Made by a program: the position numbers and the translations under genes. Source: Candidatus Omnitrophota bacterium (GTDB taxonomy: Bacteria > Omnitrophota > Gorgyraeia > Zapsychrales > Fredricksoniimonadaceae). From it: a stretch of 64,000 bases of DNA. Position 1 is the first letter of the stretch. The number at the start of each line of letters is the position of its first letter. Under the pieces are notes generated by a model that was given only the letters and a program-made list of their open reading frames with translations, searched no databases and was not told the DNA's origin. Shown here piece after piece: positions 7,839-18,747 of the stretch. The stretch lies in contig CAIOPG010000009.1 in assembly GCA_903860135.1 (NCBI GenBank), positions 37,916 through 101,915 on the forward strand, written 5' to 3'.

Positions 7839-8125
7839 CAATAGCTTAAGTCTTAATCCTTGTTGATGATGTGCCGTAATAGACTTCGCGAAATAGGGTG
7901 CGGTATTTTTTTGTTGCGTCGAATTTGTGGGTAATATAAGATACGGCAGGATCAGGCTACCCCAGTCTGATGGAGAGAATAGAGTTAAGTGGTATTGAAT
8001 AGACTGCAAGTAGGTGGGGTTATCTGACCTTAAAGCCGTGTCGCAGAAATCAAATCGGATAACGATGTCTGATTTTAAGAACGCTGCTATCTGTTTGTAA
8101 AGCTTGAGGGGTTTGTTATCAGTAA

Positions 8126-8138
8126 TTATAGGAAGTTT
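8126..8138. repeat. partial (13/19) copy of the att-like 19-mer (attataggaagtt)
   Basis: Matches the 3' 13 bases of the 19-bp repeat found at 9153 and 19234. Confidence 0.5.
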
Positions 8139-8285
8139 ATCGGCAATTTATTGGCAATTCGTCGGCAATAAGGTATAAATGCTTATTTCTGTTTAAATCT
8201 ACCGTGATGATGGTGTTGCATTACCCACTTGTTACATATGTCATAGTGTGTTATATTCTTACTGGATAAGAAAGGAGTATTGATT

Positions 8286-8528
8286 ATGCTACTGACAATA
8301 GATTCTCGTAAAAGGATCCCACTAGGCAAGGTTCTTCTAGACACGGATGTTACTTTGTTTGACGCCAAGGTCGACGATAGCGGAAGGATCATCCTAGAGC
8401 CTATGCGCGCAGTTCCCGAAAGGGAGGCGTGGTTATACCAGAATCCCAAGGCTCTGGATTCCGTGATGATGGGACTCAAGGACTCTACCGAAGGACGGGT
8501 TAAGACTTATATCTCAAAAGAGAAATAG
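8286..8528 (+). CDS. type II antitoxin, AbrB/MazE/SpoVT-like
   Basis: ATG is 8 nt after the RBS AAAGGAG. The SRKRIPLGKV swapped-hairpin-like N-terminus. Lies immediately upstream of the toxin gene with a 2-nt gap. Confidence 0.5.
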   Translation: MLLTIDSRKRIPLGKVLLDTDVTLFDAKVDDSGRIILEPMRAVPEREAWLYQNPKALDSVMMGLKDSTEGRVKTYISKEK

Positions 8529-8530
8529 AT

Positions 8531-8821
8531 ATGTTCAAGGTCTTAACCACGATAACATTCGACGAAGAGTTTGCCGCATTGCGTCAGCAGAGGTCTATGG
8601 TTGCCAGGGTCAAGGCGATTGAAAAAACGCTTAAGTTATTGTCTAACCCAAGGCATCCTGGTCTTCAAACGCATGAGTTTACTTCACTCAAGGGTCCTAA
8701 CGGTGCCAAGGTCTTTGAGGCGTATGCCCAGCAGAATACACCCGCAGCTTACAGAGTGTTTTGGCATTACGGCCCTGGCCGGAACGAGATCACAGTCGTT
8801 GCCTTTACGTCCCATCCGTGA
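8531..8821 (+). CDS. type II toxin, RelE/ParE superfamily-like
   Basis: 96 aa, basic. The C-terminus YRVFWHYGPGRNEITVVAFTSHP fits a RelE/ParE-type fold. Antitoxin-then-toxin gene order. Confidence 0.5.
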   Translation: MFKVLTTITFDEEFAALRQQRSMVARVKAIEKTLKLLSNPRHPGLQTHEFTSLKGPNGAKVFEAYAQQNTPAAYRVFWHYGPGRNEITVVAFTSHP

Positions 8822-8910: not shown

Positions 8911-9039
8911 GGTCCTGGCGGAGAGAAGGTTTTTGAAGCTTATGCCGAGAACAATACGCCGGTGGCGTATAGAATTTTATTTTATTACGGCCATGTCCGC
9001 AGTGAAATTGATATTCTAATGATCGTTCCGCACCCTTAA
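8911..9039 (+). pseudogene. 3' fragment of a second, diverged RelE/ParE-like toxin gene
   Basis: Translates as GPGGEKVFEAYAENNTPVAYRILFYYGHVRSEIDILMIVPHP*, colinear with the toxin C-terminus (KGPNGAKVFEAYAQQNTPAAYRVFWHYGPGRNEITVVAFTSHP*). There is no start codon or N-terminal part. Confidence 0.55.
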
Positions 9040-9152
9040 TAAAATAGGGGATGGATGAAATTTCAAACGGATACGTATAATTTTGATGGTGAAGCCTCCA
9101 GGCAACCTAATGCGTATTACTCTGATTGCTCCCGCACAGTCGTACTTAACAT

Positions 9153-9171
9153 AACATATATTATAGGAAGT
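9153..9171. repeat. 19-bp direct repeat ACATATATTATAGGAAGTT (left copy, putative attL)
   Basis: Identical 19-mer recurs at 19234-19252, 10,081 bp away. Confidence 0.8.
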
Positions 9172-9185
9172 TCGTAATATAGCGA

Positions 9186-9216
9186 TCTAGCGTAAAAGAA
9201 ACGGTAAAACGCTAGA
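9186..9216. promoter_or_regulatory. 8-bp inverted repeat tctagcgt-N15-acgctaga abutting the rep start codon (candidate operator/hairpin)
   Basis: Perfect inverted repeat ending 1 nt before the ATG at 9218. Confidence 0.3.
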
Positions 9217-9217
9217 C

Positions 9218-9877
9218 ATGCACACGCAAAACGATACAAGACACAAAACAAGCCTCAAAAAAGATTTCATCCCCACTTGGATCGAAGATCTATCCCTCCT
9301 AAAAGAATCAAACGCCTCAACCTTTGCCGTTTATCACGTTTTAAAGTTTTATGCCGTAGAATCCCCCACATTTGAGATCCACAAGATAACCGAAGGCGAC
9401 ATCCACGCTCAAACAGGACTTGAGCATAAAACCATCCGCAGGGCTCTTAACAAGCTTGAAAAGCTTGAAAAGATCATACGGATCGGATATTGCCGATACC
9501 GATTAGTTAATTTCTTTAAGTTTTCCACAACTTCGGGCAAAATGCCCGAACCTACCCAAAACCACTTCGGGCAAAATGCCCGAACCACTTCGGGCAAAAT
9601 GCCCGACAACTTCGGGCAAAATGCCCGCCCACTTCGGACAGAATGCCCGAACCCCTTATATTTTAATAGAAACGTAGACAGAGATTTAAAAGAGAGGTCT
9701 GGTGATAAATCACCAATCGAACAGCAAGAACATAACTGGTTGCGTATGCAATACCCGTTTCGTGATCGTGAAGGGTTAAAACAGCATTTAGTTAATAGAG
9801 GCTATTCAGAGCATGACGCAACGATGTTTATGGAAAGTTTTTATCAAGAATATACAGGAAAGGCTGGTGGCAAATGA
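9218..9877 (+). CDS. replication initiator protein (lambda O-like, iterons inside its own gene)
   Basis: 219 aa. N-terminal winged-helix-like region. The central segment is encoded by the iteron array (TSGKMPEPTQNHFGQNARTTSGKMPDNFGQNARP). Confidence 0.6.
   Translation: MHTQNDTRHKTSLKKDFIPTWIEDLSLLKESNASTFAVYHVLKFYAVESPTFEIHKITEGDIHAQTGLEHKTIRRALNKLEKLEKIIRIGYCRYRLVNFFKFSTTSGKMPEPTQNHFGQNARTTSGKMPDNFGQNARPLRTECPNPLYFNRNVDRDLKERSGDKSPIEQQEHNWLRMQYPFRDREGLKQHLVNRGYSEHDATMFMESFYQEYTGKAGGK
9529..9650. repeat. iteron array: 5 copies of palindromic cTTCGGGCAaaaTGCCCGAa (putative replication origin)
   Basis: Copies start at 9531, 9565, 9588, 9610 and 9632 (the last is degenerate: cttcggacagaatgcccga). 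Spacing is ~22 bp for four of them. Each unit contains the inverted repeat TCGGGCA/TGCCCGA. An AT-rich tract follows at 9655-9700. Confidence 0.75.
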
Positions 9878-10176
9878 CAGGAACACAGGTTTGTATGGAA
9901 TTTGACGGAAAAACGTTTGAAAGGAACATGGACGGCCAAAGGCTACGGACACAGCTTGAGCAAGTCTTTGATCTGATGAAAGACGCCTCTTGGCGAACAT
10001 TGCAAGAGATCGCACTTCTTTCCGGTTGTCCAGAGGCATCAATTTCCGCAAGGCTTCGAGATCTCCGCAAGGCAAAGTTTGGCAAGCACAACGTCAACCG
10101 CCGCAGACGTCCGTTGCATGACATTTTCGGGGTTTGGGAATATCAGCTTTTAACGGCTTATAACGGGCTTTATTGA
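9874..10176 (+). CDS. hypothetical winged-HTH-like DNA-binding protein
   Basis: ATGA overlap with rep. 100 aa, basic. Confidence 0.4.
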   Translation: MTGTQVCMEFDGKTFERNMDGQRLRTQLEQVFDLMKDASWRTLQEIALLSGCPEASISARLRDLRKAKFGKHNVNRRRRPLHDIFGVWEYQLLTAYNGLY

Positions 10177-10188
10177 AAGGGGTTTTTA

Positions 10189-10364
10189 TGTTCGGGATGG
10201 AGATTTTAACGGATAAGAAAAAACAGGCCGAGCTTGGCGAGATCGCGCAACGTGTCCTGGGCACGATCAATGAAACGTATCGGCTGGCGAAGGAAAACAA
10301 CGAGATGCTCAAGGATCTGACGGCTTCGGTCGCATGGGCTAAACCAAAGAAAAAGGAGGCGTGA
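10189..10364 (+). CDS. small hypothetical protein
   Basis: ATG preceded by GAAAGGGG. 58 aa, coiled/charged. Confidence 0.3.
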
Positions 10365-10579
10365 ATATGTTCGGATTGATTTTTATATCGTCGGTGTTGG
10401 TTGTTCTAGTGGTCGCTATCCGTTTATCCTCTACATACGAGGTTAAACACGGGCTCATTAACTTGAGAAAGGACATGCCAGATGAAACACTTTCATTGTC
10501 AGATGTGCGAACAGATGCTGGACGGTCAGCCGAAAATGAGGTTTGCTCTGATCGGGTTTTGTTGGGAGCCGTCGCTTAA
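10361..10579 (+). CDS. small membrane protein (single TM)
   Basis: Hydrophobic N-terminus LIFISSVLVVLVVAI. Overlaps the next ORF, so one of the two probably starts later. Confidence 0.25.
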   Translation: MNMFGLIFISSVLVVLVVAIRLSSTYEVKHGLINLRKDMPDETLSLSDVRTDAGRSAENEVCSDRVLLGAVA

Positions 10580-10859
10580 CAAGGATCCCAGCGAGTTATT
10601 GAATATTTGCGAGGCTTGCCAGCACGCTTTTCTGAAAGCCTACGCGAAAGCAAAGAACGAGTGCCTTGAGGCAGTTTACGAGAAGCAAAAAACGGCTTGG
10701 ATTATGGACAAGATGGAAGGCTTGGAAAAAGCGCGCGGCAGGGTGAGCGTTGGATCTGCAAGGACAGTCAACCGCCTATCCCCCGCACAGGAAGCAATGG
10801 CCGATAATGGGCGCTGGAATTACAGCCACAACGAAGCGCAAAAGGTTTGGAGGTTTTAA
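10482..10859 (+). CDS. zinc-finger (2x CxxC) protein
   Basis: HCQMCEQM ... ICEACQHAF. Start uncertain (alternative ATGs at 10503 and 10536). Confidence 0.4.
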   Translation: MKHFHCQMCEQMLDGQPKMRFALIGFCWEPSLNKDPSELLNICEACQHAFLKAYAKAKNECLEAVYEKQKTAWIMDKMEGLEKARGRVSVGSARTVNRLSPAQEAMADNGRWNYSHNEAQKVWRF

Positions 10860-10861
10860 GA

Positions 10862-11071
10862 ATGCGATATGACAATGTAGAGCGTGAATGTAAGAATTTC
10901 CTTCAAAGAATATCTGGATCCGAAAACGCAAGCGGCGGGATTGTTCCACCTGAACATGCTTTGTCCTTCGCCCACCTTGATAAAGATGAAGCATGTTTGT
11001 TCTATTCCGCAGAGTGCCAAGAAGGAAGATACCTTGTAATAATGCAGCCTAAAATTAAAGGAGGCGCATAA
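10862..11071 (+). CDS. hypothetical protein
   Basis: GGAGG RBS 8 nt upstream of the ATG. 69 aa. Confidence 0.35.
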   Translation: MRYDNVERECKNFLQRISGSENASGGIVPPEHALSFAHLDKDEACLFYSAECQEGRYLVIMQPKIKGGA

Positions 11072-11428
11072 ATGGCAAAGTCAGCAACGAGTTTTGCAAA
11101 GAAGGTTTTTGAAGCGCCGTGTCCTTCATGTCACAGCAAGGATGCAATCGGTAAAACCCGTTGTCCATGTGGCGCACAGCGCAGGGCAAATGGTCAGGTT
11201 TATTTTGACGGCAAAGACATTGAAAAGCCCGTTGCGCCCGTGTCCGAGCCCGTCAAATCACCCGTTAAAACAAAAACGGGCTCTCCGTCGGTGAGCCCAT
11301 TAAAAAAAAGGAGCCCGTCAAATGGTAAGAAAGAGCCCGTCAAAAGCCCGTCAAAAACCCGTGTTGAGCCCGTCACCGAGCCCGTCCGAGCCCGTGAAAG
11401 TAGCCTCTCCACATACTTCTATGACTGA
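11072..11428 (+). CDS. Zn-ribbon protein with lysine/proline/serine-rich (histone H1-like) tail
   Basis: AAGGAGG RBS. CPSCHS...CPCGAQ followed by (E)PVKSP repeats. Confidence 0.45.
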   Translation: MAKSATSFAKKVFEAPCPSCHSKDAIGKTRCPCGAQRRANGQVYFDGKDIEKPVAPVSEPVKSPVKTKTGSPSVSPLKKRSPSNGKKEPVKSPSKTRVEPVTEPVRARESSLSTYFYD

Positions 11429-11915
11429 TCCGGAAAATGTGAGAATGAGCGCACAGGATTCGGGGCTGGATGATCTTGTTGCAAAGCTGGGATCCGGTGC
11501 AAGTGCGCCAGCGGCCGATCCCTCCCCCGCTATGGTTGAGCCGGCAGATCTTGAGATATATAAAAGGCTGGTTAAGCCGGTTTGTTTGGTGGCCGGCTGG
11601 GGCATCGACAAGATCAACCGGCGCTTTCTTAAGTGTGAGTTCACGCCGTTCACGGATGGTCAGGTCGCCATGCTTGAGGATGATCTATCTTTTGTATTAA
11701 AGGACGCGCTGGACAAGATCTTGCCAGACATGGCCAAGAAAAACCCGCGCATGGTGTCGCTTGTGATGATCTTCGGGATGATCTACGCATCCAACACGCG
11801 CCGGATCATAGAGGCGCCGAAGCCGGCAGAGCCAGCCAAAGAAACAAAGCCCGTGCCGAGCGTGCATGAGGTTCACATCAAAACAGCAGAAGGCGTGATC
11901 GGGGGCATTCAATGA
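11421..11915 (+). CDS. hypothetical protein (ATGA-overlapping start; the ORF track extends it upstream to 11322)
   Basis: ATG at 11421 overlaps the stop of the preceding gene in the typical phage fashion. The upstream extension overlaps the previous CDS by 107 nt. Confidence 0.4.
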   Translation: MTDPENVRMSAQDSGLDDLVAKLGSGASAPAADPSPAMVEPADLEIYKRLVKPVCLVAGWGIDKINRRFLKCEFTPFTDGQVAMLEDDLSFVLKDALDKILPDMAKKNPRMVSLVMIFGMIYASNTRRIIEAPKPAEPAKETKPVPSVHEVHIKTAEGVIGGIQ

Positions 11916-12386
11916 GGATAGACAATATCATCAACCTTTGGGATCCGCGCCAGCGCGGGTGCGGCGTGGTGTTCGTTCCGTTTGGGATCTACATTTTCAA
12001 AGGATACATGACGCTTGAGGTGCTTAATTTTCGGATCAACATTTCATTTAAAAGGGATTAACCATGTCACACGCTTGCGCTTCATGCGCCTTTTGGCGCC
12101 GGATTAACCCGTATGATGCCGGCGAATGCCGCAAGAACGCGCCGCAACCTTCACAAGGCGGCTACAAGTTCCCCGTTACGGATCCGCATGTGTATTGCGG
12201 CCAATGGTCAACCGAGTTCAGAAAGGATGCTCCAAATGCCTAAGTGCGATTTCTTCATTATCCCGATGTTTACGTCGATGACACCCGTGCGGCTTCAAGT
12301 GTTCGATTTCGTGGCCTATCGGGTCGGCGGCGTCAGTTATTGGAGCATAACGATCTTAAATTTCGTCTTTGTTGTGGGGGTATAAA

Positions 12387-12632
12387 GTGAAAATTACAAA
12401 ATGGGTCAGCGTTGATGTTGAGGTTGACGTTGACGTATCAAGTGAGGATATACCGGAAATCTTTTCAAAGTCGTGTGAATGCTACCATGATTTCTTGGCG
12501 ATATTGAACAGGTTCTTTTCTGTAATGAAGAACATGCCGGATCACATTATTAAGGACATGACGGAGAAACAGCGTGAAATAACAAAAAACTACCTTATTG
12601 AACAGTCAAAAAGGTTTTCAGATGCACAATGA
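12387..12632 (+). CDS. small acidic hypothetical protein
   Basis: GTG start. 81 aa. Ends inside the ATPase start region. Confidence 0.3.
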   Translation: MKITKWVSVDVEVDVDVSSEDIPEIFSKSCECYHDFLAILNRFFSVMKNMPDHIIKDMTEKQREITKNYLIEQSKRFSDAQ

Positions 12633-13233
12633 AATCATCGTCATTCTAGGCAAGAAAGGATCTGGCAAAACGGTCATGGCGCGGCATATGGTCAGCGACA
12701 AGCGCCGTCTGATCGTCTACGATCCCATGCGGCAGTTTTCGTCATGCGGCGTCGTGCTGGTGCGCTTCGAGGATCTTGTTGCCTACATCAGCCACAACAG
12801 GCGCGGCCACTTCCGCGCGGTTTACCAGCCAGAGATCCCGATTGATGCAACAAACGACATAGTGCGTGCCGAGTTCATCCGCATGTGTGATCTGGTCAAT
12901 CGGCTGGTCAACGTGTATTTCCTTGTCGATGAAATTGATAATTGCCTCCCCCCGCGTGACCGTGAGAACGGCTTTTTCAAGAACATGATCCAGCGCGGCC
13001 GGCACGCGCAAGTCAGCCTTGTTGCAACGACGATCCGCTACACGGACACCCAGCGCAATTTGACCGCCCAGGCAGACACGATCATTTGCTTTCATACGCA
13101 TGAGCCGTCTGACGTTAAGTATTTCCGCAATTACTTCGGGGTCATGGCTGACGATCTCCACCAACTCCCCCCCTATCATTATGTCAAATACGATAAAGGA
13201 CAAGTCAGCCGCCATGAGCCTATCAGATTATAA
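12622..13233 (+). CDS. P-loop ATPase, putative genome-packaging ATPase (FtsK/HerA-A32-like small ATPase of membrane-containing phages)
   Basis: Walker A ILGKKGSGKT and Walker B YFLVDEIDN. ~204 aa, no TM segment. Confidence 0.55.
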   Translation: MHNEIIVILGKKGSGKTVMARHMVSDKRRLIVYDPMRQFSSCGVVLVRFEDLVAYISHNRRGHFRAVYQPEIPIDATNDIVRAEFIRMCDLVNRLVNVYFLVDEIDNCLPPRDRENGFFKNMIQRGRHAQVSLVATTIRYTDTQRNLTAQADTIICFHTHEPSDVKYFRNYFGVMADDLHQLPPYHYVKYDKGQVSRHEPIRL

Positions 13234-13730
13234 AAAAATTGATGTTGAGATTAGCGAACAGCCACTACCAGCGCAATTTGATGATGATCCAAAGATATTC
13301 CAGCAAGTGTATTTCGACGCACTTGGTGTTTTGGTCGGTATGCGCGTAAGGAAAGGAAGAAAGCGTGCCAAAGCCAAAGCGTAAAAACCAAAAAGAGTTC
13401 GCTTTTTGCCTTTGTGGATGCGGTCGGCGTTTCAGAGTTTACCCTTGCCGGCCTCAATTTTTCGCATCATCAACATGCCGCTGGCTTCTGATAAAAAAGA
13501 TACTTGCCGACTATATGCACAAAACGCACGTTTCCACGTTCTCCGTCGAGAAAAACACCGCTTAAAACCGTTTTAAAGCCACGATCTCCACTAGAGACAT
13601 GTCATTACATGGCTCTTTTTTTGTTTTATATGCGAATTCCTTCGTTTGACGAGCCCGTGAGCCTTCCGGCAATCTGAAAAGGTAATGTTCGACCATAACG
13701 GTCAACAACAAAAACCGAAAGGAAAAGCAA

Positions 13731-13841
13731 ATGTTCTCTAAAGAAGCCCTCATCAAGTTCGCGATTTTGGTTGCGGCCGTAGTGGTCGGTAACATCGCCA
13801 CCGGTTATGTTCAGGCGTTTTTGCCTAAGAAAACGGCATAA
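13731..13841 (+). CDS. 36-aa single-TM protein (virion membrane/coat-like)
   Basis: RBS GGAAAAG then ATG. MFSKEALIKFAILVAAVVVGNIATGYVQAFLPKKTA. Below the ORF-track size cutoff, found by eye. Confidence 0.35.
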   Translation: MFSKEALIKFAILVAAVVVGNIATGYVQAFLPKKTA

Positions 13842-13856
13842 GCGAAAGGAACGATC

Positions 13857-14009
13857 ATGCAGAAGTTACTTGTTTCCGTTCTTGTGGTAGTGGTCGCGAT
13901 AATCGCGGCTGGCGTGCTTCTCGATGAAGCCGGTAAAGGCACTCTTGGCGGGTTCGTTCAGAGCTTGGCTAAGAAAACAACCAGCGGCTATGGGTCGCTG
14001 AACGCTTAA
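13857..14009 (+). CDS. 50-aa single-TM protein
   Basis: RBS AAAGGA. MQKLLVSVLVVVVAIIAAGVLL... Confidence 0.35.
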   Translation: MQKLLVSVLVVVVAIIAAGVLLDEAGKGTLGGFVQSLAKKTTSGYGSLNA

Positions 14010-14033
14010 AACATTTAAAAAGGAGTTTTTCAG

Positions 14034-14885
14034 ATGCAGATATTCATGTTTCCCACAACCAGAGGATTAGGCACGATCCCAGGCGTTGCCGCTGGCGCTC
14101 TTTTGACCGCCAAGATCCCCACGAACGGCAAGAAGTACGGCTTCTTCCTTCTTGGTAAGACGGCCGCTGGCGTAGCGCTGACAGCCGCACAGCTGAACGC
14201 TGACATTGGCGACATCGTTGTCCGTGTTAAGGGTGAAGCGAAGATCGAAGCATCCTGCACAGAGTTGCTGATGATCCAGAAGTATTTAGGCGACGCGAAC
14301 GTTGCCGGCAACATCAGCGGGATCGTTCCGATCTTCCTGACGCCGCGCGATCTCGCAACGTATCAAGAACGCCGTGCGCTGGCTTGGGGCACAGCCGACA
14401 TCGACAGCATCACCATTGAGATCAAGATCGTTGGCGTGGCACAGCTCGCCAGCCTTGAGCTCTTTGAGTATGCGTCTGATGAGCAGGAAGTGCTTGGCAC
14501 TCACCTGACGATCCGCCGTTTCCCGCATTCGTTTGCGTCAACGGGCGTGCAGGAGATCTCCGACCTTGTCAGCAACGTGCCTGACATGGCGTATCGCACG
14601 ATCTTCTTGCAGAAGAACACCGCCGACATCACAAATGTCAGCTGTAAGGTCAACAACGCGCTGGTCTACGATCAGGTTCCGGAAGCGTTAAACAACGTAT
14701 TGAACGAGGACGGCAACCGCAAGGCGCAGTCTGGTTATTACGCGATTGACTTCTCCCGCATTCGCGATCTCGCAGGGATGCTCCCGATGAAGGGCATTAC
14801 GGACTTCCGCGTCACCCCGACATGGGCGACCAATGCGCCGGCGAGTTACAACATCATCGGCATCATCTATAAGGGCTTGAAATAA
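14034..14885 (+). CDS. putative major capsid protein (size and position consistent with a double jelly-roll MCP)
   Basis: RBS AAAGGAG. 283 aa, beta-rich composition, no TM segment. The largest soluble protein in the structural block. Confidence 0.45.
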   Translation: MQIFMFPTTRGLGTIPGVAAGALLTAKIPTNGKKYGFFLLGKTAAGVALTAAQLNADIGDIVVRVKGEAKIEASCTELLMIQKYLGDANVAGNISGIVPIFLTPRDLATYQERRALAWGTADIDSITIEIKIVGVAQLASLELFEYASDEQEVLGTHLTIRRFPHSFASTGVQEISDLVSNVPDMAYRTIFLQKNTADITNVSCKVNNALVYDQVPEALNNVLNEDGNRKAQSGYYAIDFSRIRDLAGMLPMKGITDFRVTPTWATNAPASYNIIGIIYKGLK

Positions 14886-14910
14886 GCCTAAATAGAAAGG
14901 GGCGTCTTGT

Positions 14911-15198
14911 ATGGCAAATGAAACGACGACGGCACAACCGTCATCATGGTTAGACACCCTCGGCGGCTGGGTAACATCAGCCGGTAAGATCTTCAACGCT
15001 GGATCCGAGGTTTACGTTGCGGCACAGCAACGGTTGAACGCGATTGAAAGCGTCAACGAGGACACGGTCAAGGCTTCAACGCCCGCCGCGCCCAAAATTG
15101 TGTCAGGTATGCCGAGTTCAATGCCGTCTTGGGTAATGCCAGCGGCAATCGCGGCCGGTGTGCTTGTTCTCATCATCATCGTGAGAAAGTTGAGGTAA
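14911..15198 (+). CDS. C-terminally membrane-anchored protein
   Basis: C-terminal TM segment PAAIAAGVLVLIIIV. Confidence 0.4.
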   Translation: MANETTTAQPSSWLDTLGGWVTSAGKIFNAGSEVYVAAQQRLNAIESVNEDTVKASTPAAPKIVSGMPSSMPSWVMPAAIAAGVLVLIIIVRKLR

Positions 15199-15201
15199 GC
15201 C

Positions 15202-15408
15202 ATGCTTCCAGCCGCAGGCGCCGCAATGATGGGAAGTTCGCCTTCCTTCTCATCTGGTGCTACATCAGGGGCAACAGGAAGATCGGGCGATATTACGAGT
15301 TCGTATATGTCAGGCGACTTCACGGTCGGTGGTGACAAAAACATGATCTGGATATTCGTTGTCGCCGGTGCAGTAGCAATCGCCTTTTTCGCGTTCAAAG
15401 GTAAGTAA
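15202..15408 (+). CDS. C-terminally membrane-anchored protein
   Basis: C-terminal TM segment IWIFVVAGAVAIAFFAF. Confidence 0.4.
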   Translation: MLPAAGAAMMGSSPSFSSGATSGATGRSGDITSSYMSGDFTVGGDKNMIWIFVVAGAVAIAFFAFKGK

Positions 15409-15816
15409 GTGATAGTCACGGCCAGAAAAACGGCCTATGACGATCAAAAGCATCGTGTTCTTTTAGAAAAGATAGATCCAGCCGTCGGCGTGGCATGCCT
15501 TGCCGGCACGGTTCAGAGAGATCTGATAATGCTCTTTGAGGTTCACGCCGACGGCCTTCTCCTTGGGATATTCTTGGCAAGGATTGACCGCCTGATTGAT
15601 GGCGGCCGCGATCTGGTTATATGCCACGCGGCGGCAGTTGATAAGCCATCGATAGCCATGACAAGGATCCTAAATGCGATCTTTGACCAAGTCGCCCGTG
15701 ATTATGGGCTTAACTCGGTACGGATCCACTCGGACAAGAAGGGGCTGGATCGAATAATGGAAAAAAACAATTACGTATTTCAAGAGGCCGTTTATAGAAA
15801 GGTCATAGATGTCTAA
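15409..15816 (+). CDS. hypothetical soluble protein
   Basis: GTG start abutting the previous stop. 135 aa. Confidence 0.35.
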   Translation: MIVTARKTAYDDQKHRVLLEKIDPAVGVACLAGTVQRDLIMLFEVHADGLLLGIFLARIDRLIDGGRDLVICHAAAVDKPSIAMTRILNAIFDQVARDYGLNSVRIHSDKKGLDRIMEKNNYVFQEAVYRKVIDV

Positions 15817-16195
15817 GTCAGGCTCAAGCTCAACAAGTTCATCCACCACACAGAACAACAGCGAAGATAATCGCGTTGTCGGTGAGGGCGGCTCGCTTGT
15901 TCTTGGAAAAGATGCGATCTATAACGTGGCAAACGAGCTATCCCCCAACATGCTTGCCGCGCTCAATTCCTTTGTAGGTTTGGTGCGTGACGCCGGCACG
16001 GTTGTTGTTGATACGGCTGACAAGGCCAATCAATCCGCACAGGCCAGCATTGCGGCCGTCACCAGCGCGATCCAGAACGACAAGACAGGCACAACCACAA
16101 CAGAGCAATCAATCGTCAAATACATCCCGCTTGTTATCGGCGCGGGCATCATCATTTTTGTGTTGATTAAGATGTTTAACGGAAAGAAGGCATAA
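15809..16195 (+). CDS. Ser/Thr-rich protein with C-terminal TM anchor
   Basis: C-terminal TM segment IPLVIGAGIIIFVLI. Confidence 0.4.
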   Translation: MSKSGSSSTSSSTTQNNSEDNRVVGEGGSLVLGKDAIYNVANELSPNMLAALNSFVGLVRDAGTVVVDTADKANQSAQASIAAVTSAIQNDKTGTTTTEQSIVKYIPLVIGAGIIIFVLIKMFNGKKA

Positions 16196-16196
16196 C

Positions 16197-16781
16197 ATGC
16201 AGGGATCATCCTATCAAAGCATTACGCTTGTTTTATTGGCCGGAGAAACGCGCGCGGTGATGGCTTATGGCCGTTATCTCCGCATCTTGGACAATTCAAT
16301 CGCGACGCATCCACAAGTAAAGATCGCTGACAACCCCGAACAGGAGTTACAGGCCGGCGTTGGCATTGAGATCTTCGGAGGTCAGGAGAATTCCTTCTCT
16401 AATGTTCTTGTTCGCAACCCTGCGGCTGGTGTAATGACGCTAAAGATCGCCATTTCCAGCGGCCAGATTGACGACAGCAGATTGACGCTGACAGGCACAA
16501 TTTTGACACAGCCAGCACAGACAGCAACAGGCACGGACGCGGCAGACATAACAACCGGCGCCGCCGCAAAGGTGTTTTCGTCCGCTTCTTGTAAGTCGGT
16601 TTTGATACAGGCAGACTTCACGAACGGCGCAAACGTGTTTTTAGGTTTTGCAAATACTGTCAGCGCAACGCGCAAGGTGATCGCGCTTTCCGCTGGCATG
16701 GCGTTTCAGTTCGATAATTTCAACGGCGATATATGGGCGTATTCCGCCGCCGCGCAAAAAATATCTGTTTCTTCTTGGTAA
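16197..16781 (+). CDS. putative virion structural protein
   Basis: 194 aa, beta-rich, Gly/Ala/Thr-rich. Confidence 0.4.
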   Translation: MQGSSYQSITLVLLAGETRAVMAYGRYLRILDNSIATHPQVKIADNPEQELQAGVGIEIFGGQENSFSNVLVRNPAAGVMTLKIAISSGQIDDSRLTLTGTILTQPAQTATGTDAADITTGAAAKVFSSASCKSVLIQADFTNGANVFLGFANTVSATRKVIALSAGMAFQFDNFNGDIWAYSAAAQKISVSSW

Positions 16782-16795
16782 AGAAAGGCACTTAA

Positions 16796-17791
16796 ATGAT
16801 TGTTACGCCTCCTTTTAATTCAGCTGTATTAAATACCATTTGGGCGAATATCGCACTTCTGGCCTTCCGCGATCAGGTATTTGACAGCGTTGCCGTTCAA
16901 AAGATGGTGGATGGCTTTGTTGACGAGTACGAGGACGAGACTGGAGTTTACCTTGTAAATTCTACTGGTCAAGTTTATGACAGCACAAATGATTTCTATT
17001 CACCGTCGTTCGCGGCCGCCCTTGTCGCCTATAACACCGGAACGGAAGTCAAAGATACAACCAACAATATAGGAAACGGCTTTAATAATACGACCGTACA
17101 GACGGCGGCTAATTCTGAACGTAAACTTATTTCAGGAAGCGGCTCCGGCGCGCTTTATATCGGTAAAGATTGGGGGGTAGGAAATTCTAAAATAATTTCG
17201 GGCTTCAAAATTTATGCGCCATCCAACGAGAAAATATCTCAAACATTAAACACCGTCACGTTAAAACTTCGTGGCTCAAATAACGGGTCGTCCTGGACTG
17301 ATTTAATGACAACGACCGTTTTCGCAGGTAATGCAGGTGACGTTATTGATGTAACCACCGGCATAACGACAACAACAGGTTATCGCTACCATTCTGTTTA
17401 TATTCTTGAAACTGCTGGTTGGGGCTCTGGCGATCACTATTTGCAAGTCGCGGAAGTTCAGTTTTATGAACAGTCCGTGAACAATAATATGTCATTGGTC
17501 AGCAACCCTTTTACTGCCGTAACACAGGCAAACAAGGCGCGTATTGTTGTTTTCCAAGAGGACGTTGACGCAATAACCCTCAATACTGATTTGATAGCCA
17601 GCGTTTCACGCGGTGTTAATTATACGCCAGTAGTTCTTTCAAACATGGGAACGTATGAAACAGGCAAAAATATTCTTGTAGGGCTGGTTGATATTTCAGG
17701 TCAGCCCGCCGGAACAAATATGCGGTATAAACTCGATACCGCCAACAGTAAAAATTTAAAAATTCACGGAACGGGGCTCTTATGGCAATAA
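16796..17791 (+). CDS. putative spike / receptor-binding protein
   Basis: 331 aa with Asn/Thr/Gly-rich beta-sandwich-like C-terminal half. Size similar to the PM2 spike. Confidence 0.4.
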   Translation: MIVTPPFNSAVLNTIWANIALLAFRDQVFDSVAVQKMVDGFVDEYEDETGVYLVNSTGQVYDSTNDFYSPSFAAALVAYNTGTEVKDTTNNIGNGFNNTTVQTAANSERKLISGSGSGALYIGKDWGVGNSKIISGFKIYAPSNEKISQTLNTVTLKLRGSNNGSSWTDLMTTTVFAGNAGDVIDVTTGITTTTGYRYHSVYILETAGWGSGDHYLQVAEVQFYEQSVNNNMSLVSNPFTAVTQANKARIVVFQEDVDAITLNTDLIASVSRGVNYTPVVLSNMGTYETGKNILVGLVDISGQPAGTNMRYKLDTANSKNLKIHGTGLLWQ

Positions 17792-17912
17792 AACGATTAA
17801 CAGTTCAATCTGGTGCGTCAGATGCAAAGATCGACGCGCTGATCGAGAAGCTCAAGACTAAAGGCGTGATCTCCGCCGTTGAAGCTGACGACGCAAAGAA
17901 AGGCAAGAAATA

Positions 17913-18104
17913 ATGTGGTTCCTTCTCCCCCTGATCGGCCTTGGCGGTGCATTCGTTGGCGCTCAAGTGGATAACGCGGTGCAGAGTTCAGCGGCCGCGC
18001 CTCAAGTGATCGACCAGAGCAAAGCGCCTTGGTGGATCCCCTATCTGATCGCCGGCATTGTCGGCCTGATCGCGTGGCAGTTCATCAAAAAGGCGGTCAA
18101 ATGA
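17913..18104 (+). CDS. small 2-TM membrane protein
   Basis: Two hydrophobic helices. Confidence 0.35.
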   Translation: MWFLLPLIGLGGAFVGAQVDNAVQSSAAAPQVIDQSKAPWWIPYLIAGIVGLIAWQFIKKAVK

Positions 18105-18222
18105 TAGATGCCATGCAGTTTGCAGTTGTTCTCACGTTGGGGATCGCTTGCGGCTGGGGCGCTACGCTGTACCTTATCGGGTGCGGCTACTTCCAAGATG
18201 ATTTTGACAAGCTGGGGCGCCC

Positions 18223-18450
18223 ATGATCGCATGGCTCAAAAAGCTCCTTTCAGGTTTTAATTTCGGATCCGGCGCCGTGATCGGCAAATGGATCTTTTAC
18301 CTTTGTGTTTTTGCCGTGTTCATGTTCGGGTGGTCAACCATGACCGGCAAGAAAACAACGACGAGCCAGAAGGCCGAGCAAATGACAAACTACACCTACA
18401 CGCCGCAACAGACATTCGGTTGCATGCGTATTGACGTGAAAGGCAACTGA
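18223..18450 (+). CDS. small membrane protein
   Basis: TM segment WIFYLCVFAVFMFGW. Confidence 0.35.
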   Translation: MIAWLKKLLSGFNFGSGAVIGKWIFYLCVFAVFMFGWSTMTGKKTTTSQKAEQMTNYTYTPQQTFGCMRIDVKGN

Positions 18451-18747
18451 TGAACATTGAAACGGCTTTCCAGCTTCTTAACACGGCTTTAGTGGCTGTT
18501 TGCGCGTTCAGCCTTAACAGCATGGCCGGCGACATCCGCGAGATCCGCGCCGACATCAAGACGCATATTTCTGATCACACGGTTCATTGCAAATATCCAA
18601 CAACGAAAGGTTGCTAACATGGCAGATCTGATCCCCACGAATTTCAAAGTCACCGTTGACATAACCCCAGGCGCTATGATCTTTTTAGGCGCGGCGATCG
18701 TTTTCATCGTCTTTACAGCTAAATAAGATCTCGCCTAACCCCTCACC

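Follow-up and report, generated by a model that had tools for sequence, protein, structure and literature searches.

Gene content of the locus

The window analysed here is a stretch of 64,000 nucleotides from a Candidatus Omnitrophota contig; the genes given below with coordinates, together with the promoter and the terminators, lie on its + strand. The early part of the locus begins with a gene for a 219-aa winged-helix protein (9218–9877), a candidate replication initiator with weak matches to lambda O-like families, and five iterons of about 22 nt are found within this gene at 9528–9657. An initiator of this kind with iterons in its own gene suggests theta-type rather than rolling-circle replication. 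It is followed by early and middle genes of 100, 63, 125, 74, 118, 197, 49, 59, and 87 aa (9874–12632), several of which are kept in relatives. The next gene encodes a genome-packaging ATPase of the FtsK/HerA class (203 aa, 12622–13233), homologous to PM2 P9 (hhalign 96.1%, E 3e-9) and, over its full length, to the STIV2 packaging NTPase B204 (E 1.5e-16), with a match to phrog_2666 at 8e-25. Between the ATPase and the first membrane gene lies a conserved 66-aa ORF with a GTG start (13365–13565), which the sequence-only reading had overlooked. This ORF is found in 6/6 elements and has a basic N-terminus and an invariant CLCGCG motif whose codons vary at the third position; its product is a candidate zinc-binding DNA-binding protein. 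A conserved intrinsic-terminator hairpin with a T-run (13594–13622, stem 13594–13615) shows compensatory changes in 3/9 pairs, and on sequence-level evidence the upstream transcription unit, comprising the ATPase and the basic CLCGCG protein, would close here. A TTGAC-like box is located around 13644, downstream of this terminator and ahead of the structural operon. The structural module had been described as running from the ATPase to a terminator; the hairpin after 18726 is real (18748–18785, −25.8 kcal/mol, z −3.4), but the ATPase belongs to a separate transcription unit, cut off from the module by the first hairpin.

The gene train at 13731–18726 is 99% coding, with intergenic gaps of −10 to +25 nt, and most of its starts have an AAAGG/GGAG-type ribosome-binding site 6–10 nt upstream. 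The first gene, s36 (13731–13841, 36 aa, a single transmembrane (TM) helix), has the position of PM2 P7, a protein with which comparison gave no sequence similarity; its identity in three relatives is 74–89% (pN 0.11–0.25 vs. pS 0.59–0.67), and no protein of the module apart from s35 is better conserved. The second, s50 (13857–14009, 50 aa), has a TM helix at its N-terminus and a conserved tail (...AKK.TSGYG) at its C-terminus. The major capsid protein (14034–14885, 283 aa) is a double jelly-roll of the PM2 P2 family: it scores 49.8 bits for P2_N and 55.1 bits for P2_C in Pfam at a threshold of 25 bits, and its AF2 model (pLDDT 90.4) has PM2 P2 (2vvf_A) as the top PDB match (E 8.5e-20, TM-score 0.82/0.86), followed by the capsid proteins of STIV, PBCV-1, and PRD1; in tblastn, Vibrio corticoviruses are found at 25–29% identity. 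The next protein, p95 (14911–15198, 95 aa), has an amphipathic N-terminal part and a C-terminal TM anchor, a position and architecture analogous to those of the capsid-to-membrane linker PM2 P3/NO16 GP18, with which profile comparison demonstrated no homology. Similarly small is p68 (15202–15408, 68 aa), whose N-terminus is rich in Ser and Gly and which has an SGDFxVGG motif and a TM helix at the C-terminus; it is a homologue of the PM2 virion membrane protein P8 (hhalign 95.9%, E 5.9e-9) and the only one of the small proteins for which homology to a PM2 virion membrane protein could be demonstrated. The conserved soluble protein p135 (15409–15816, 135 aa) stands where NO16 has GP16, a protein predicted to adopt an acetyltransferase-like fold, and is weakly similar to it (48%, E 1.8e-4). 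In p128 (15809–16195, 128 aa), a Ser/Thr-rich N-terminus and a conserved EDNRV motif precede a C-terminal TM anchor; its position is that of PM2 P10/NO16 GP15, and its match to the P10 profile is weak (E 0.004).

The second half of the train begins with p194 (16197–16781, 194 aa), a conserved protein of two beta-domains and a candidate penton (vertex base), and p331 (16796–17791, 331 aa), a candidate receptor-binding spike. In p331, both terminal parts are conserved, while the middle domain, F5/8 type C-like, is exchangeable; the counterpart in the related element L006 has a Laminin_G_3 middle domain, and that in another relative is a 606-aa GDSL-lipase-containing protein. Small genes follow up to the end of the operon. 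The 43-aa s43 (17782–17913) has no TM helix and no orthologue was detected in related elements, making it the least supported gene of the train; s63 (17913–18104, 63 aa), with two TM helices, is kept in three relatives and is a candidate virion membrane or holin-like protein; s41 (18101–18226, 41 aa, TM) has positional TM analogues in relatives at 30–38% identity; s75 (18223–18450, 75 aa, N-terminal TM helix) has an orthologue in L006; and s55 (18450–18617, 55 aa), which has a weakly hydrophobic N-terminal helix and then a polar tail, is matched by an L011 orthologue with the DHTVHCKY motif. In position and shape s55 resembles PM2 P17, and sequence comparison with P17 gave no similarity. The last gene of the operon, s35 (18619–18726, 35 aa, TPGAMIFL...FTAK), has a C-terminal TM helix and 68–71% identity in three relatives (pN 0.16–0.22 vs. 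pS 0.74–0.80). The small proteins had been described as sitting around one 283-aa and one 331-aa soluble protein; both are present, but p135 and p194 are two further soluble proteins among them. Searches of the element proteins revealed neither a peptidoglycan hydrolase nor a recognisable holin. Beyond the operon, a strong sigma-70-like promoter (18961–18990, 11/12 positions plus TG) and a 63-aa HTH_17/excisionase-family gene (18997–19188) adjoin the attachment site; with its own promoter and a placement like that of Jorvik Gp1, this gene is probably part of the lysogeny/excision decision.

The small membrane ORFs as genes

TM helices were assigned by simple hydropathy, using Kyte–Doolittle windows and uncharged stretches of at least 16 residues. 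One clear hydrophobic helix each was found in s36, s50, p95, p68, p128, s41, s75, and s35, and two in s63; the helix of s55 is borderline (KD 1.49–1.7), and the 43-aa ORF has none by hydropathy. The sequence-only reading had counted at least nine tiny TM ORFs, which agrees with these nine clear membrane ORFs and one borderline case, and all the ORFs it had named exist at their coordinates, including those at 13731–13841, 13857–14009, 18101–18226, 18450–18617, and 18619–18726. Among the small train ORFs (30–130 aa), 10/11 are TM-positive, compared with 5/46 size-matched ORFs from the other frames or the opposite strand of the same region (Fisher p = 6.9e-7); for same-size ORFs of the whole window, the rate is 14%.

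Conservation across related elements, the lack of which had been named as refuting the proposal, is likewise observed. Orthologues were identified in L006, L007, L009, L010, and L011 for 9/11 small ORFs, with pN of 0.11–0.48 vs. saturated pS of 0.5–0.9; the TM helix is retained in every orthologue, and the amino-acid identities often match or exceed that of the capsid protein. It can be concluded from the orthologues, from pN far below pS, and from the retention and enrichment of TM helices that the small ORFs are genes. The expectation that they would be missed by standard gene callers was overstated: some assemblies do omit some of them, but the gene calls on identical public contigs include the 36-, 50-, 43-, 63-, 41-, 75-, and 35-aa ORFs, albeit inconsistently; for instance, s36, p68, p135, and s43 are absent from the calls of one assembly and s55 from those of another.

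Attachment sites and host

The element is delimited by an exact 19-nt repeat with copies 10,080 bp apart (chance expectation 0). At the left end, where the repeat occupies 9154–9172, attL (9143–9170) is a complete 28-bp dif composed of an XerD-type arm (ACTTAACATAA), a central region (CATATA), and an XerC-type arm (TTATAGGAAGT). At the right end, attR (19223–19252) is a hybrid site consisting of CTACGGCCGGA, CATATA, and TTATAGGAAGT, in which the central region and XerC-type arm are exactly those of attL and the remaining arm is phage-derived and non-canonical. The arms were assigned by comparison with what we take to be the E. coli and B. subtilis dif consensus. In the Omnitrophota MAG L014, the attL dif is found unoccupied at about 18224–18251, at the syntenic place after the patatin gene and with a similar right flank. 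L010, an independent relative with 45% capsid identity, adjoins the same kind of dif site, and in the unintegrated L006, L007, and L009 a half-dif is found at the corresponding location upstream of rep; the half-site retained is of the XerC type in the window phage, whereas it is of the XerD type in the free relatives. The 9,863-bp contig of L007 is circular, its ends overlapping by 30 nt, so a free form is present in the lineage. The cumulative GC skew has its maximum at about 18 kb, where gene orientation flips from + to −.

No recombinase was found among the element proteins by size, similarity, fold, or motif searches. The full dif at attL, the lack of an integrase, and the empty dif in a relative point to XerCD-mediated integration. 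In the circular genome, the attP would lie directly upstream of the replication gene and combine a good dif half-site with the dif central region and a degenerate second arm; host XerC/XerD would recombine it with the chromosomal dif at the replication terminus, no phage integrase being required, and integration would restore a perfect dif on the rep side (9143–9170) and leave the hybrid site at the other end (19223–19252). Integration at dif by XerCD without an integrase has been proposed earlier for NO16 (PMC9966536) and Jorvik (PMC10589892).

The host, an uncultivated bacterium, is assigned to Omnitrophota from the LeuC of the prophage-bearing contig, which has 71–82% identity to five Omnitrophota MAGs, from the leuD-aroC-SDR-patatin synteny common to this contig and an Omnitrophota MAG, and from the physical embedding of the prophage in contigs of 258–272 kb. 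Two assemblies carrying the prophage differ by only 10 mismatches over 17 kb, and thus the element has been recently acquired or maintained.

Relationship to known phages and rival explanations

The gene order and gene sizes of the prophage agree with those of PM2 and the Vibrio phage NO16. PM2 (Pseudoalteromonas phage; Corticoviridae, Corticovirus) shares with it the P2-family capsid protein (Pfam above threshold, model TM-score 0.82 to 2vvf), the P9-type packaging ATPase just upstream, P8, a genome of about 10 kb (10,079 bp vs. 10,080 bp here), and the succession of ATPase, tiny TM gene, capsid, C-terminally anchored protein of about 100 aa, small TM genes, spike-sized gene of about 330 aa, and small TM genes. 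PM2 differs in that capsid identity is only about 22%; its rolling-circle Rep P12 and P13/P14 regulators are missing here, where the 219-aa winged-helix initiator with internal iterons is found instead; homologues of P5 and P6 were not found in the Omnitrophota element; two tiny genes rather than one precede the capsid gene; the single P1 of PM2 is apparently split into penton and spike (194 and 331 aa); and the Omnitrophota element is temperate, integrated at dif, in a host from a PVC-related candidate phylum instead of Gammaproteobacteria. NO16 (proposed 'Asemoviridae', Vinavirales) is also temperate, with about 10.6 kb, no integrase, a dif-like att, and proposed XerCD integration (PMC9966536). 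It has the identical order of capsid, P3-like, 68-aa, acetyltransferase-like (about 130 aa), about 130–150-aa, penton (about 180–190 aa), and spike genes (PMC13552765, from which its virion composition is also taken). The four genes between capsid and penton-sized gene encode 95/68/135/128 aa here and 82/68/125/149 aa in NO16, and penton base and spike are separate in both. Unlike the present element, in which neither protein was found, NO16 encodes a rolling-circle-type Rep of 633 aa (GP03) and an endolysin (GP11), and its host is Vibrio; the two capsid proteins are about 25% identical, and hhalign is weak for GP17 (53%) and GP16 (48%) and gives no link for GP18, GP15, and GP14. Jorvik (Rhodobacter phage; Vinavirales, Jorvik-like group) is circular, membrane-containing, about 9 kb long, and without an integrase, with dif-resembling attP/attB and an HTH gene adjoining attP that governs the lysis/lysogeny decision (PMC10589892). 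Its attB lies in the RuBisCO operon of an alphaproteobacterium and varies among relatives, whereas the present site is a bona fide dif-like one, located where the skew switches in a terminus-like manner.

IMEX elements, such as CTXphi, VGJphi, and TLCphi of Vibrio cholerae and the gonococcal genetic island, are mobile elements without their own recombinase that have dif-like repeats on their flanks and restore a functional dif at one end. The present element shares these three features, and its attP with one degenerate arm recalls TLCphi; unlike IMEX, which are filamentous ssDNA phages or islands, it is a dsDNA capsid-and-membrane virus.

The series of tiny membrane-protein genes is genuine and is part of a 10-kb PM2-like prophage at the chromosomal dif site. 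With a probability of roughly 0.8, positions 9154–19233 of the window correspond to a temperate virus of 10,080 bp that looks intact, a tailless icosahedral dsDNA virus of the PM2/NO16/Jorvik type (order Vinavirales) that resides integrated in a Candidatus Omnitrophota chromosome. The PM2-like internal-membrane structural module proposed from the sequence is borne out by the P2-type capsid, the P9-type ATPase, the P8 homologue, and the PM2/NO16 gene order; the parallel drawn to PM2 P3–P8 and P10 holds for P8 as a demonstrable homologue, but the equivalents of P3, P4, P7, and P10, and also of P17, are only positional, and comparisons of the small proteins with P7, P4, and P17 were negative or weak. 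In virions of this type, the genome lies inside a protein-studded lipid vesicle surrounded by a double jelly-roll capsid; by analogy with PM2-type relatives, the particles of the Omnitrophota element would likewise contain membrane and lipid. The separate structural operon (13731–18726) would successively encode two tiny membrane proteins, the capsid, a P3-like linker, the P8 homologue, an acetyltransferase-like soluble protein, a P10-like anchored protein, the penton candidate, a spike whose receptor-binding domain is exchangeable, and six tiny, mostly membrane proteins. As in PM2 and NO16, the small proteins would enter the host cytoplasmic membrane, a patch of which would be pinched off beneath the assembling capsid to form the internal vesicle, and the ATPase would pump DNA into it via a vertex; some of the tail-end membrane proteins probably act in membrane fusion/DNA delivery and others as holin-like factors in lysis.

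Alternatively, the tiny TM proteins, and above all the six encoded downstream of the spike, might serve lysis (holin, spanin-like), superinfection exclusion, or the host membrane, in a virion with little or no ordered membrane protein complement. In PM2, the two small genes at the end, P17 and P18, have been reported to serve as lysis factors (PMC9502842). A hydrophobic helix leading into a polar or coiled tail is seen in s55 and its positional analogues, the two TM helices of s63 recall class II holins, and several small hydrophobic proteins of NO16 amount to at most one copy per virion by mass spectrometry. Against this, five small proteins near the capsid gene stand at the positions of the proven PM2/NO16 virion proteins P7, P3/GP18, P8, and P10/GP15, p68 is homologous to P8, and s35 and s36 are conserved above the capsid protein, which is unusual in lysis or exclusion genes. 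This explanation, which we hold to be doubtful though with an appreciable chance, is partly compatible with the PM2-like virus, in which some tail-end genes are already given a lysis role.

That the element is a defective or domesticated cryptic prophage without particles, its small ORFs looking conserved only because the relatives compared are active, appears quite unlikely: 17/17 genes, counted from the ATPase through s35, have open reading frames, lie close together (99% coding), and retain ribosome-binding sites, the att repeats are identical over 19 nt, the capsid, ATPase, rep-like, and HTH genes are full length relative to those of relatives, a circular genome exists among these, and the two assemblies differ so little (10 mismatches in 17 kb). 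A remnant would fit the lack of a recognisable lysis enzyme, the one mismatch in the terminator stem 13594–13615 (none in relatives), the lack of clear orthologues of s43 and s41, and the retrieval of the integrated form from three assemblies while the circular form of the exact element was not retrieved. Integration might also proceed other than by XerCD, the 19-nt repeat being an ordinary att core for a recombinase encoded elsewhere in the genome, for instance a tyrosine recombinase such as that beside the dif of L014, or for an unrecognised phage protein (197 or 219 aa). A 317-aa tyrosine recombinase with its own palindromic dif-like site lies 0.5 kb from the dif of L014, the phage arm of attP is not recognisable as an XerD site, and a third dif-like copy has an unexpected position; yet the repeat and its left flank form a 28-bp site matching what is presumably the E. 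coli/B. subtilis consensus in both arms and spacing, another Omnitrophota genome has this dif empty at a syntenic, terminus-like position, a dif-type site is used by a relative whose capsid is 45% identical and a half-dif is kept by free relatives, no element protein has a recombinase fold or motif, and the same route has been proposed for two other Vinavirales lineages. We consider this alternative unlikely.

The virus type and the integration route were known before from other bacteria, and the Omnitrophota element is an additional member rather than a new type. New are the 10,080-bp element delimited by the exact 19-nt repeat, its full 28-bp dif at attL with no integrase in the element, the Candidatus Omnitrophota host, the conserved 66-aa "CLCGCG" ORF absent from every gene call, and the conserved terminator between the ATPase and the structural operon.

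Beyond the prophage boundary, a degenerate third dif-like copy (GGGTTTGTTAT, CAGTAA, TTATAGGAAGT) is located at 8108–8135, left of the perfect dif, which is not expected from the simple IMEX model. Between this copy and attL, outside the 10,080-bp prophage, lies a pair of genes of 82 and 96 aa (8280–8821), AbrB-like/RelE-like by eye and without a family match in searches; a shortened second copy of the C-terminus of the 96-aa protein is found at about 8924–9037.

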